NCBI GenBank assembly: GCA_951406725.2
Contig: OX597817.1
Coordinates: forward strand, 79,298,001-79,362,000
Direction of reading: 5' to 3'
Source: Octopus vulgaris
Lineage: Eukaryota
Length of the DNA stretch: 64,000 bases
Shown here piece after piece: positions 20,501 to 57,016 of this stretch (the stretch's first letter is position 1; every line of letters starts with the position of its first letter). A program made the translations under genes and the position numbers. The notes beneath the pieces are model-generated. The model ran no database searches and was not told where the DNA came from. It saw nothing but the letters and a program-made list of their open reading frames with translations.

Positions 20501-21794
20501 GATGAAATCCACTCAAGTGATTGAGTGGTTGGTAAGCAAGCTACTTACCTCACAGCCACTCCTGCACCTATACATATATACATACATACATACATACATA
20601 CATATATATATATATATATATATATATATATATATATATATATATATATATATATGTATATATGCACACACACACACATATATATATATATATATATATT
20701 CGCATGATAGATCTAGTAAAATGCTTAGTGGTATTTCGTCTGCTGTTACACTCTGAGTTCAAAATCTGCCGAGGTCATTTTTACCTTTCATTCTTTTGTG
20801 GTCGATAAATTAAGTACCAGTTACGCACTGGTTTCGATGTATTTGACTTAATTCCTTTGTCTGTCCTTGTTTGTCCCCTCTATGCTTAGCCCCTTGTGGG
20901 CAATAAAGAAATAAGATTAAACGATAGAATAAGTACTAGGCTTTAAAAAATGTGTCTTCAGGTCGATTCATTTGGCTAAAATCATTCAAGATGGTGCTCC
21001 AGCATTGCCTCAGTCAAATGACTGGACAAGTAAGTAAAATTTAAATATATATGTATATATGAGTATGACGTCCTGTTTTTGTTATTATTATTATCATTAT
21101 TGTTTTTACGTATTTTCGTATTCTTATTCGTGTTATCATTATTGTTTTTACGTATTTTCGTATTCTTATTCGTGTTATCATTATTGTTTTTACGTATTTT
21201 TTTGTATTCTTATTCGTTCCCGTCCTTGTTTTGTATACATTCGAGGCTTTCTTCCAAGGAATCTAATGCGCTTGGCTTAGATTTTCCTTTGGGGCTGGCC
21301 AGGTCGGAGCAATCTCAAGATTAATCAGCCGAAATTGCGAGGATGATCCGGTTCTTGACTGAAGATTGAAGGCTTCGAATGTCCCGTCCGTGTTTTTTGT
21401 ATCGTCTTCTAAATGTTTTGCGTTCTTGTCCCAGTTAGTATTTTTTTATGTGTGTGTATATATATATATATATGATATATATATATATATATATATATAT
21501 ATATATATATATATATATATAATTAATTAATAAGGGTGAGAGAATTAGATACTAATTTAATAGTATATCTATTCAACACCAAGTGGCCTAGTGCTCCGAG
21601 AAACCTGGATTATTATAATATTTTATAATATATTATAATATTTTTACAAAATAAATATAAGAGAGTGGTCACTATATGGCTCACTCTAGCACTAGTTAAT
21701 CCAAAAGGTTTCAACCACAAAAATACATGTTTCCCATGAAAGTCAGTACGATTGTTAGCTCACACGGACAGGGCAAATAAAAATAACAAAAATA

Positions 21795-21890
21795 CAGATT
21801 ATTTTGGGACAATTGTTTCGCTATTAATGAATTAAATGTAATTTTACTTACAAAAAAATCCACTTGTAGCTCCTCAGCCAAAACTATCTG
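21795..21890 (-). ncRNA. Type I hammerhead ribozyme, inverted copy
   Basis: Reverse complement of 21915-22010; predicted cleavage at position 21808. Confidence 0.87.
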
Positions 21891-21914
21891 GCGTGTGATT
21901 GAGTGGATTTCATC

Positions 21915-22010
21915 CAGATAGTTTTGGCTGAGGAGCTACAAGTGGATTTTTTTGTAAGTAAAATTACATTTAATTCATTAATAGCGAAACAATTGTCCCA
22001 AAATAATCTG
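21915..22010 (+). ncRNA. Type I hammerhead ribozyme (intact core)
   Basis: Stem I cagat-ag-ttttgg / ccaaaa-ta-atctg; CTGAGGA 21928-21934; stem II gcta/tagc closing a 43-nt loop; GAAA 21986-21989; palindromic stem III ACAATTGT; GUC cleavage triplet ending at 21997. Confidence 0.88.
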
Positions 22011-22235
22011 TATTTTTGTTATTTTTTATTTGCCCTGTCCGTGTGAGCTAACAATCGTACTGACTTTCATGGGAAACATGTATTTTTGTGGTTGAAACCT
22101 TTTGGATTAACTAGTGCTAGAGTGAGCCATATAGTGACCACTCTCTTATATTTATTTTATATTATATATATATATATACATGTTACGTTTATATATTTGT
22201 TTTGCAAGATTTTTTATGTGAAATTGTGTATTGAA

Positions 22236-22462
22236 ATATATATTGTTGTATTTAGGGATGGTCATTTTGCCAATTTAACCAATAAAACACACGCACTATA
22301 TATTTGATGCAGTCACAGGAGTGTGACGAAAGAACTCTGGCCAAAATAAGATTACGATTAATGTAAAAAATAAATAACGCTGAAGTAACACCTAATATAT
22401 AGTGCATGTGCTTTTATCGGCTAATCTGGCAAAATGACCATTCCTAAATACAACAATATATA
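22236..22462. mobile_element. Inverted pair in (TA)n with truncated hammerhead-like remnant at 22304-22346
   Basis: Arms about 22236-22304 and 22394-22462 are diverged reverse complements; the spacer reads ttgatgca-gtcac-aggagt-gtgac-GAAA-gaactct. Confidence 0.6.
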
Positions 22463-53800: not shown

Positions 53801-54140
53801 TACACACACCAACTAATACATACTAATACGTACTAATACATACTAGTACATACTAATACATACACCAACCCTATACATACACACGTCCAGACCCCGCATA
53901 CGCACTTATACTCTCTCATACACACACACACACACTTATACATACCAATACGTACTAATACATACTAATACATACTAATACATACACCAACCCCATACAT
54001 ACGCACGTCCAGACCAATCCTACGCACTAATACTCTCTCATACACACACACACACACACACACACACACACACCCTTATACATACTAATACATACACCAA
54101 CCCTATACATACACACATCCAGACCCCTCCTACGCACTAT
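53795..54140 (+). repeat. Composite tandem repeats in PLE 3' UTR
   Basis: 10-bp CATACTAATA units plus three copies of catacaccaacc(c/t)atacatac..(g/a)tccagacc separated by (CA)n. Confidence 0.85.
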
Positions 54141-54309
54141 TAGCTGGTCCCTCAACCCATTTATCAACCCTATTATCTCCCCTTATTTCGCTCTCGCGTC
54201 TCATGTTTGATCTTTGACCTCTGGCCGAAATCAGATCGCCATGTTGATTCGTTAGCTACTGCACGCATTTTTTTCTCTCCTTCTTTCTGTGTTTTTCTCT
54301 CTCTGTGTA

Positions 54310-54347
54310 TCTTTCTGTTGAAGAGCGTAGGCTCGAAACGTTAAAGA
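54310..54347 (+). ncRNA. Minimal hammerhead-like motif in PLE 3' pLTR
   Basis: tcttt-ctg-TTGAAGA-g(cgtaggct)c-GAAA-CGT-T-aaaga: core with C3>U, 1-bp stem II, palindromic ACGT stem III, stem I tcttt/aaaga with a bulge. Confidence 0.55.
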
Positions 54348-56772
54348 CTTGTTTTATTTATATTTCCTGAGCGCCATACTAATACAATTGTTCGTTTGTT
54401 TTCCACCTGCCTTCGTCTTTTGTTTATTTTCATAAAGCTTCCCGTTATATATATATATATATATATATATATATATATATACGACAGGCTTCTTTCAGTT
54501 TCTGTCTACCAAATCCATCCACAAGGCTTTGGTTGGCCTCAGGCTATAGTAGAAGACAAATGCCCAATGTGCTACACAGTGAGACTGAACCCAGAACCAT
54601 CTGGTTGATAAGCAAGCTACTTACCACACAGCCACTCCTGCGCATATATATATATATATATATATATATATATATATATATATATATATATATATATATA
54701 TATATATATATACATATATATATATAATATATATATATAATATATACATATATATGTAAATATATATATATATATATATATATATATATATATATATATA
54801 TATTATATATATACTCAAATATTCATTAGTTTCCCCTGTTTATTCACCCAAACATTTATATAGGTGAAACTGATAATAGAATAATACACATAGACACACA
54901 CACATACACAGATGCACACATACACACACATTCACACACACCCACACACATGTGTGTGCACTCTCACACATACACATACTTATGTATGTTTGTTTTATAT
55001 GTGTTTGGGTGCATGTGTATAGCTGCTTACATTATAATATGTAAAGTCACAAGCTGCAAACAGTGTTGTTCTTGTCACGACAAATCTTCTGCTTGCTTTG
55101 TGAGACATTGGATGAGTTTGCTGCAGATAGCCGTAAACACACTACCCATAGTGGTTGATTAAAGGCTGAATGTGTCAGATGATAAGACTTCAGAATCAGA
55201 ACTACTATAGGGTTAAAGCAACAAAAACCAAAACAAGAACAAAATCATTTAGTTCTAGGGGCCTAACTGAAGATTTCACCTTCACGTAATGTTTCTATTA
55301 ACAGGCAATCTAAGGTTAGTGAACCCTGCATGCAATAAAAACCTGTTAGGGCAATTTGAACTCAGCTCAGAAAGCTATCGAAATATCTATCAAATTACAA
55401 TGCTTCTGCTGTTTCAAGAATTCAGTTGCAGTTATTTATGGTACCTATTTATGGTACCTATTTATAGTAAGATGAAATGAACCAGCAAGAATCAGGTGTC
55501 TCAGTCATTGTTACTTATCGAATTCAACATGGATCATAAGTAGGGATGTTCAAACTAGTTGTTAGATGTCTTCAATCAGAACTTAAAACCTTGTGAGCAC
55601 ACACACACACACACACACACACACACACACACACACACACACATCTCCACCAGAATATTAAAGAATGGTAAAACATGTGAGAAATGTCAAAAAGAAAAAC
55701 TGAAGAAAATAGGAAGAAGCTATCTGAAATATTGTGAAGACAAGCAAAAATGCACACATGCCCATACACATAAGCACACATAAAAATGCATTTATTTGTT
55801 ATTATTGAAGTTGACAAACTTTCTCTTACATGAATTTTGATCCTGGGAATGTGTTTCGTAACATACACTCATGAACAAACACACACAGGTAGAGAGATAG
55901 ATAGATGGATGGATGAATGGATGGATGGATGAATAGAGGGATACAAGATTATATGGCTGTTTGTATTATATTATCTCGTTTTGGGATTTGGTTTGCAAGA
56001 TTCTTTATATGAGTTTGTGTGTTGAAGCATATTCTGTTGTGTCTGGGGAGAGTCATTTTCTTTTTGTGCCTTATAATGTAACACACTCACTGGTAAAATT
56101 TCCACTTATTTCTTATTTTTCTTTTCCTAAAATTTTCATTGTATCTTGCAACCTTTTCAATAGTGTTGACTATATTAACTTTTCCTTTAGAGTGGCTACC
56201 TGGCAGAATTGTTAGCATGCTGGGCAAAATGCTTAGCAGCATTTCATCTGTCTTCGTGTTCTTAGTTCAAATACTGTCTAGGTCAGCTTTATCTTTCATC
56301 CTTTCGAAGTTGATGAAATGAAGCACCAGTTGGGTGCTGAAGTTGATGTGATCAACTTAGACACTTCCTTAAACTTTCAAGCCTATTCCTTTTAGCAGAA
56401 CGAAAAGAATGGATTATATTAACTTTCAACTAATCTGGTGGATTATTCTATAATTTTCTGCAGTACAGATTCAAGAATATTGTTGACAGTGACTTTAAAA
56501 AATGCAGCCAGCTAATCTGCCATCAGACTTCAGACAATGGCTTAGCTGGATGAAACTTCGAAGTCACTGCCAACAACATTATTGTCTGAGAAAAATAAAT
56601 ATATATAAGATTAGGTTTACATATATAAAAATCTGTATATATACATGTATATACATGTATATATGTATGCATATATATATATATATATATATATACATAT
56701 ATATATATTGATAAAAATGGTAAGACAACAAAAGAATGAAAGAGACCTCGATATTATGTAAATAGAGGAATT

Positions 56773-57016
56773 TATCTGTAAATGTAATATGCGACAATTA
56801 TTCAGTAGCCATGATAAAACTTCGAGTTTTGGATGTCGGGGTGGGAATCCACACTGTCATCTCTTCAGTTATCCAGCCATCGGATAACAGTTAATAGCAT
56901 TTTTTCTGATGGCCAGATAACTGAAGAGATGGCAGCATGGATTCCCACCCCGACATCCGAACCTCAAAGTTTTAACATGGCTGCTGAATAATAGCCACAT
57001 ATGACATTTTCAGATA
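56773..57016. mobile_element. Inverted pair with degenerate hammerheads (56813-56873 minus; 56916-56976 plus) in (TA)n
   Basis: Diverged arms about 56773-56884 and 56905-57016. Consensus gataa-CTGAAGA-gatg...catc-c-GAAA-ct(cga)agt-t-ttatc; one copy has AAAA and the other GAAC in place of GAAA. Confidence 0.7.

Follow-up and report, generated by a model that had tools for sequence, protein, structure and literature searches.

A 64,000-nucleotide stretch of the Octopus vulgaris genome (GenBank assembly GCA_951406725.2, contig OX597817.1, positions 79,298,001 to 79,362,000 of the forward strand; hereafter the window, with positions counted from its first letter) contains five asymmetric inverted pairs, E1 to E5, lying in TA microsatellites and numbered in the order of a sequence-only reading of the same DNA. 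Each pair probably consists of two 3′-end copies of one repeat family, placed head to head in a TA array by a single aborted insertion of the Penelope-like element (PLE) type. The firmness of this reading differs between the sites. The sequences of E1 and E2 very probably record a truncated PLE-type insertion, which is likely for E5 and may be extended to E3 and E4 by analogy only. On present evidence the pairs provide a short-end example of a known PLE insertion structure rather than a new mobile class.

The arms were found by local alignment of each interval with its own reverse complement. E1 (21522-22161), E2 (22181-22461) and E5 (56709-57013) are strong asymmetric inverted pairs, as is the AT-rich E3 (24617-24955), which was assigned to no identified family; E4 (29640-29730) is the weakest case, a 20-bp hairpin with a 44-nt tail. 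All lie between TA arrays, visible at both outer ends, with one short array common to E1 and E2. None of the five contains an open reading frame (ORF), both copies being 20-370 nt long, and none forms a tandem array. The long arm of E1 (21522-21891, minus strand) is the outward-reading 3′ end of a hammerhead-bearing repeat family, and its short arm (21886-22161, plus strand) carries a 22-nt spacer. Over 247 nt (21645-21891 and 21914-22161) the sole difference between these arms is one homopolymer base, and the long arm runs on to the left for a further 123 nt (21522-21644), a tail without counterpart in the short arm. The first 6 nt of the short arm, ATCTGG (21886-21891), are common to the end of the long arm, a microhomology lying where they pair with CCAGAT at 21914 in a natural hairpin. 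In E2, the long arm (22181-22304, minus strand) has a tail of about 57 nt on the left (22181-22237), whilst the short arm (22305-22461, plus strand) starts within a hammerhead-like core; the paired segments (22236-22304 and 22394-22463) are alike at 63 of 70 positions and enclose an 89-nt spacer. The arms of E3 (24617-24684 and 24808-24877, about 70 nt) are alike at 103 of 117 positions when the AT-rich inner part is included, and here the long arm is on the right, with about 75 extra nt. E4 pairs 29684-29702 with 29711-29730 (18 of 20 alike; the 44 extra nt on the left), and E5 pairs 56770-56887 with 56902-57019 (100 of 118 alike, 85%) around a 14-nt spacer, with a tail of about 62-67 extra nt on the left. 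One arm therefore extends 44-123 nt further outward than the other at all five sites. The polarity assigned to E3 and E4 (minus strand for E4) would follow from the tail only. Three of the five short ends overlap TA by at least 3 bases, which may hint at homology-helped internal priming.

Asymmetric inverted pairs in TA microsatellites are real and non-random in this DNA. The sequence-only reading had allowed for a lack of enrichment over shuffled background; instead, all five pairs scored above every dinucleotide shuffle of their own interval (0/200 shuffles reaching the score for E1, E3 and E5, 0/500 for E2 and E4). The window holds 82 TA arrays of at least 12 nt, and a scan of the whole window without any TA filter returned 46 pairs scoring at least 26 and seven scoring at least 78. 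A TA array within 20 nt of one end and within 130 nt of the other accompanies five of these seven, compared with 2-4% of random segments. Four of the five are E1, E2, E3 and E5; the fifth, at 39151, is a palindrome of low complexity centred on TA, a different thing from E1 to E5. The score of E4, 26, is tied eleventh among 60 inter-TA intervals. The claim of asymmetric pairs in (TA)n thus stands strongly for four sites, and E4 is reduced to a short hairpin that is weak in the window-wide context. No sequence relatedness was detected among the five, as had been supposed: the score of the top cross-pair, E2 with E4, was reached by 2 of 100 shuffles.

Three of the sites had been credited with hammerhead or hammerhead-like cores pointing outward. 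A strict descriptor was built on the core motifs of the type I hammerhead ribozyme, with features checked against those set out in the relevant passage of PMC4209133. It recognised five sites in the window, and 100 block-shuffled windows yielded none. The three sites that belong to the E1 family have a perfect core; the other two, in the left arm of E5 and in an autonomous PLE described below, have one core mismatch each. The E1 motif at 21921-22004 (plus strand) has a long helix II, a helix I of 6-7 bp, a self-complementary helix III/loop and a predicted cut after 21997. Its mirror copies at 21801-21884 and 20411-20494 (minus strand) were found by the same descriptor, and in the predicted fold of the segment 21914-22010 both helix I and helix II are long (z -4.3, 0/200 shuffles). 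E1 carries, as judged from the descriptor and this fold, a canonical type I hammerhead in each arm, for which cleavage is predicted. The E5 motifs are decayed: that of the left arm (56813-56873, minus strand) is the one with a core mismatch, and that of the right arm (about 56916-56976, plus strand), recognised by eye, has another core change and fails the descriptor. The E2 core, also recognised by eye and failing the descriptor, is found only in the short arm, where the junction has removed the first core base and the 5′ strand of helix I. Because the core is cut at the junction, and because the E2 family has C at the place of A9, E2 has no intact ribozyme. The descriptor found no hammerhead in E3 or E4. 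The earlier claim thus survives fully for E1 and in weakened form for E5 and E2. All the motifs in E1, E2 and E5 read outward from the centre, and the arms are therefore 3′ ends joined head to head.

Public sequencing contigs place E1 and E2 in a wider context. The stretch 21522-22461 is present in 20 of 24 listed public runs (12 studies, 7 organism labels), one of which may be the source of the window. Contigs from four runs, X1 to X4, were aligned to 21850-22470 (621 nt) at likeness 85, and the junction data cover E1, through its mirror arm, and E2. Between 3189 and 6997 contigs per run matched these 621 nt, so that E1 and E2 must belong to abundant dispersed families; many copies of the E1 family occur in all four runs. 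The statements that follow concern the pieces listed, 32 of 20,545, together with 15 of 21 joints and, likewise, a part of the loose ends, of which there are 679 further rows. The E1 arm has the majority letter at every listed place, and E2, which differs from the majority at about 11 places, is accordingly an older copy. Loose ends before 21886 (three of four runs, 6-12 contigs, agreement 0.99-1) indicate that different sequence lies upstream in other members of the E1 family and that ATCTGG belongs to both arms. Similarly, loose ends before 22305 (four of four runs, 14-61 contigs) indicate that the E2 family normally runs on upstream of the junction.

Fourteen of the 15 listed joints fall in E2, and another table adds three further E2 junction rows. 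After merging of rows that probably represent one locus, the E2 family has 12-14 distinct junctions with depths of 6-111, each at about single-locus depth (long single contigs have depths of 52-69 in X2 and X4, and 6 in X3); contigs matching the window's own junction were not counted as joints. Several of the junctions hold 1-13 extra letters, and three recur in two or three runs at the same low depth, as expected of shared single loci. TA-flanked short ends were seen at 22236 (32 contigs, X4) and at 22469 (23-24 contigs, X1 and X3), and loose ends behind 22459/22461 show the tail carrying on in other contigs. A single, fixed internal site beside TA is the end point of many E2 copies, and others carry the tail. 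At the short end of E1 the bins 22144-22185 were skipped as repeats, and a fixed short end is thus seen in the E2 family only. No piece bridging the E1 or E2 junction of the window was found among the 32 of 20,545 pieces listed. To the question of whether whole palindromes recur with identical or unique junctions, the E2 family gives an answer: its many different single-locus junctions mark products of separate, one-off insertions, and not the amplification of a palindromic unit or a miniature inverted-repeat transposable element (MITE). The proposal that the pairs are ORF-less PLE products at (TA)n with 3′ ends outward, liable to be mistaken for MITEs, is borne out for E1 and E2 by these contig junctions and is likely for E5.

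Two-ended priming appears to be the best mechanism for such products. It would extend to head-to-head structures, by analogy, the nicking of both strands described in part of PMC11167929. A PLE protein would nick both strands of (TA)n. One nick would prime at the RNA 3′ end, giving the long arm with its tail, whilst the other would prime at a fixed site 45-125 nt upstream, giving the short arm. Both complementary DNAs (cDNAs) would stop early and be joined by microhomology, amounting to 6 nt in E1 and to about 2 nt in E2, or by a few untemplated bases. A tail-side cDNA stopping inside the tail would leave a plain inversion, and one running further would leave a palindrome. The product would be a dead end, since in a transcript across it the ribozyme is predicted to be buried within a single long duplex.

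The traits expected of a PLE-type insertion are unevenly distributed over the five sites. Head-to-head copies with 3′ ends outward are seen, with hammerhead polarity in E1, E2 and E5. Variable 5′ truncation with upstream continuation is found for E1 and E2 only, and one-sided extension is found at all five, though at 44-123 nt in place of the expected 30-40 nt; the short end is fixed in the E2 family. A hammerhead of the kind carried by PLE pseudo-long terminal repeats (pLTRs), with a short and often palindromic helix III, is present in E1, decayed in E5, partial in E2 and absent from E3 and E4.

A number of observations weigh against this interpretation. E3 and E4 lack a hammerhead, and E3, E4 and E5 lie outside the read comparison. 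The extensions measure 44-123 nt here, compared with 30-40 nt in print. At gathering score Rfam returned no hammerhead anywhere in the window, nor did E-value scans of 21880-22460 and 56720-57015 give one; a further E-value scan likewise gave none among the best 150 of 445 matches, and the matches to miRNA families were set aside as generic hairpins far below threshold. No arm could be linked to an ORF for reverse transcriptase (RT) and GIY-YIG endonuclease of its own family, the comparison being with the window's own PLE. Among the 15 of 21 joints listed there is no second inverted E1-family junction, only a 66-nt skip, and junction diversity is therefore seen for E2 alone. The sides of the joints span only 21-36 nt at likeness 85 and are flagged as prone to error. 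Near 22237-22239 the window has two changes of its own, by which cut points may be drawn towards the edge of the tail. Finally, an asymmetric head-to-head build, overlooked by the sequence-only reading, lies outside (TA)n at 16256-16475, flanked by (ATT)n-type repeats; 0/500 shuffles reach its score. It is made from the 3′ half of an abundant family of about 200 bp resembling short interspersed elements (SINEs), has no hammerhead, and indicates that geometry alone is not PLE-specific.

The foremost of the other explanations, though an unlikely one, retains the PLE origin and changes the way in which the second arm is made. The mirror arm would arise by self-priming, or fold-back, at a hairpin near the pLTR 5′ end, and the tail would be trimmed from one arm at resolution. 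A scheme of this kind, with tail trimming, was proposed by Arkhipova et al. (2013, PMC3846280), in a passage which attributes palindromes found at inverted junctions to self-priming, with an antisense strand as template. The identical arms of E1, its junction on a natural hairpin, and the short spacers of E4 and E5 are what fold-back would leave. Complementarity at the junction is however required, and the 89-nt spacer of E2 has none; nor do the E2-family joints, seven of the 14 listed, in which the long side ends inside or at the edge of the tail. The E1 spacer, lying in the tail-less arm, excludes a simple snap-back of tail-primed cDNA, though not the antisense-template form. Fold-back thus fits the hairpin junction of E1, provided that the tail was afterwards lost from the template arm; it does not fit junctions at which the arms do not overlap.

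The sequence-only reading had raised the possibility of an unrecognised non-autonomous class, in which ORF-less palindromes are mobile and copied as whole units. This now seems improbable, the architecture being already in print and the E2 family having many different single-locus junctions, none above depth 111. Furthermore, the families continue upstream of their junctions, no element recurs whole in the window, and a solo stub with an E2-related 3′ end but no inverted partner is found at 55950-56180 (minus strand; 71% over 115 nt, E 1e-14). The duplex fold presents a further difficulty, since the full E1 apex is predicted to form one duplex (-182 kcal/mol) in which the ribozyme would be buried. 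In favour of such a class, E1 is young and near-perfect, and identical copies of its apex are compatible with the 32 of 20,545 pieces listed. A composite view, held to be no more probable, would have E1-type palindromes copied whole by a PLE protein as an ORF-less class, together with two-ended priming on the SINE-like (ATT)n family. If so, the PLE machinery would be a general maker of MITE look-alikes in this genome.

Slightly less probable still is an origin from TA-targeting DNA transposons, as MITEs whose inverted repeats are sub-terminal. Mutator-like families that target TA and include short non-autonomous members do exist (PMC4486113), and the idea is most plausible for E3 and E4, which have no hammerhead. 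Against it, the inverted repeats are not terminal, one arm starting 44-123 nt inside at all five sites; hammerhead motifs and inner ends that vary are found in the families of E1 and E2; and the uniformity of copies expected of MITEs is lacking in the E2 family and partly so in E1. No arm matches the transposase-like remnant near 27028-27920 (minus strand), which lies between TA arrays, has no Pfam match and seems to resemble Tc1/mariner. It is very improbable that the mirror arms were made after insertion, independently of any retroelement, through fold-back repair by the host or through misassembly at unstable (TA)n. Hairpin-linked rearrangement does occur here, as shown by the TA-centred palindrome (39151-39359), by the SINE-like build at 16256 and by a duplication that breaks at the E1 apex. 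Against this, three E2-family junctions recur in two or three independent runs, the E2, E3 and E5 arms have diverged, many copies have their short end at one and the same site, and repair would neither spare flanking unique DNA nor always orient 3′ ends outward.

E1 and E2 also have related sequence elsewhere in the window. An older E2-related element with a decayed inverted arm lies at 35181-35560; its pair score of 45 is weak, and its short end falls at a site homologous to the short end of E2. The long arm of E1 is included in a 1391-bp tandem duplication (19134-20524 and 20525-21902, plus strand) and recurs in it at 20131-20516, a repetition that the sequence-only reading had overlooked. 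Three single-base indels and 4 nt of microsatellite distinguish the duplication copies. At the breakpoint (20517-20528), which coincides with the E1 hairpin apex, 12 nt of the apex are repeated and there is microhomology of 4 nt with the upstream start; the E1 arm of the first copy reaches 15 nt deeper into the palindrome. This could be the result of template switching at the hairpin or of an error in the assembly. A 21-nt E1 pattern had no match in viral contigs and one in metagenome contigs, L001, which was rejected as a chance match of only 27 of 30 nt.

The window also contains a 5′-truncated PLE (51584-54446, plus strand) with TA arrays on both sides and no inverted arm. It encodes an RT with DKG and YIDD motifs (Pfam RVT_1, E 8e-08), a CX4CXXC linker and a GIY-YIG endonuclease, the linker motif being that given for Neptune and Nematis in the relevant section of PMC8557442. 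Of 8000 candidates scored, 2167 are relatives, many of them annotated with RT and GIY-YIG; no viral-contig relative of the ORF was found. The open RT/GIY-YIG frame runs into a C/T-rich tract; there are also tandem repeats of about 122 nt and, at 54310-54347, a minimal hammerhead variant with a U at core position 6. TA-inserting PLEs thus exist in this genome and are able to insert without an inverted arm. As a parent of the pairs this element was discounted, since it matches none of the five.

Several further features were noted in the same DNA. The palindrome at 39151-39359 has arms of about 100 nt centred on its TA array, and an AT-rich 35-bp hairpin at 36573-36645, with TA on the right side only, is a possible sixth, older case. 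An AT-rich stub of 226 nt at 23680-23905, between two TA arrays, has no inverted arm; it was considered as a relative of E3 and rejected, there being no detectable relatedness and no relative of it in the window. SINE-like copies of about 200 bp occur at 4909-6246, 15264-15457, 31644-31888, 42155-42372 and elsewhere, several with (ATT)n on both sides and alternative 3′ tails, and a second two-part family sits in TA/CA arrays. The pair 57544/57978 is not the same build; it proved to be two separate SINE-like copies facing each other. A direct duplication (22596-22740 and 23369-23509, 94% over 145 nt) runs into the adjoining low-complexity tract.

In terms of significance the result is an ordinary one, the head-to-head architecture having already been described for PLEs, and it is the small mechanistic details that remain of interest. 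Short palindromes in microsatellites of such genomes should be checked for a hammerhead and a one-sided tail before they are called MITEs. Abundant families such as E2, with a fixed internal end and many junctions, allow two-ended priming to be tested against fold-back. The palindromes are also predicted to be natural sources of double-stranded RNA.

A parallel may be drawn with the twin priming of L1, in which a second, internal priming from the other target strand is joined to the first product by microhomology. Twin priming of L1 yields an inversion of non-overlapping parts, whereas here the parts often overlap to give a palindrome and the internal start is fixed. A literature search, made mostly without subscription papers and supplements, found no named class of MITE-like PLE palindromes and no PLE twin priming. 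TA-targeting MITEs and Mutator-like elements (MuTAnT, in the part of PMC4486113 concerned) resemble the pairs in being short and ORF-less, with inverted repeats and TA flanks. The non-LTR retrozymes, as presented in part of a preprint (bioRxiv 10.64898/2026.07.22.740005), are likewise ORF-less, PLE-derived and equipped with a type I hammerhead; they are however head-to-tail tandems, whilst E1 to E5 are head-to-head pairs. The E1 parent family could elsewhere be a retrozyme.

In Schistosoma mansoni, dual hammerheads 100-700 bp apart on opposite strands have been tied to truncated PLEs (Cervera and de la Peña 2014, PMC4209133). These resemble E1 in having two type I hammerheads on opposite strands, away from any ORF, and differ in that the E1 motif has long helices I and II rather than the minimal form. 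The passage concerned gives no target preference, arm asymmetry or junction analysis; palindromic loop III and hammerhead dimers are covered in the pertinent section of PMC6765202. The Poseidon element of Anolis, PAc, provides a biochemical counterpart in vitro, where both strands are nicked and extended and two RNA start sites bound the tail (Frangieh et al. 2024, PMC11167929, in the sections considered here, which do not address head-to-head products). Here, too, both strands of AT-rich DNA would prime, with two RT start sites bounding the tail; PAc starts without target homology, in contrast to the TA overlap of three of the five short ends. Finally, sections of two accounts of endonuclease-bearing PLEs describe the architecture: an inverted 5′-truncated copy, insertion into (TA)n and, on one side, a tail of 30-40 bp (Craig et al. 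2021, PMC8557442, where the formation of PLE inverted repeats is called unresolved), and head-to-head structures with junction palindromes (PMC3846280). The pairs depart from these published insertions in that both copies are very short and ORF-less and the tails are longer. They share with them the head-to-head truncated copy, the one-sided tail, the palindrome or microhomology at the junction and the microsatellite target.

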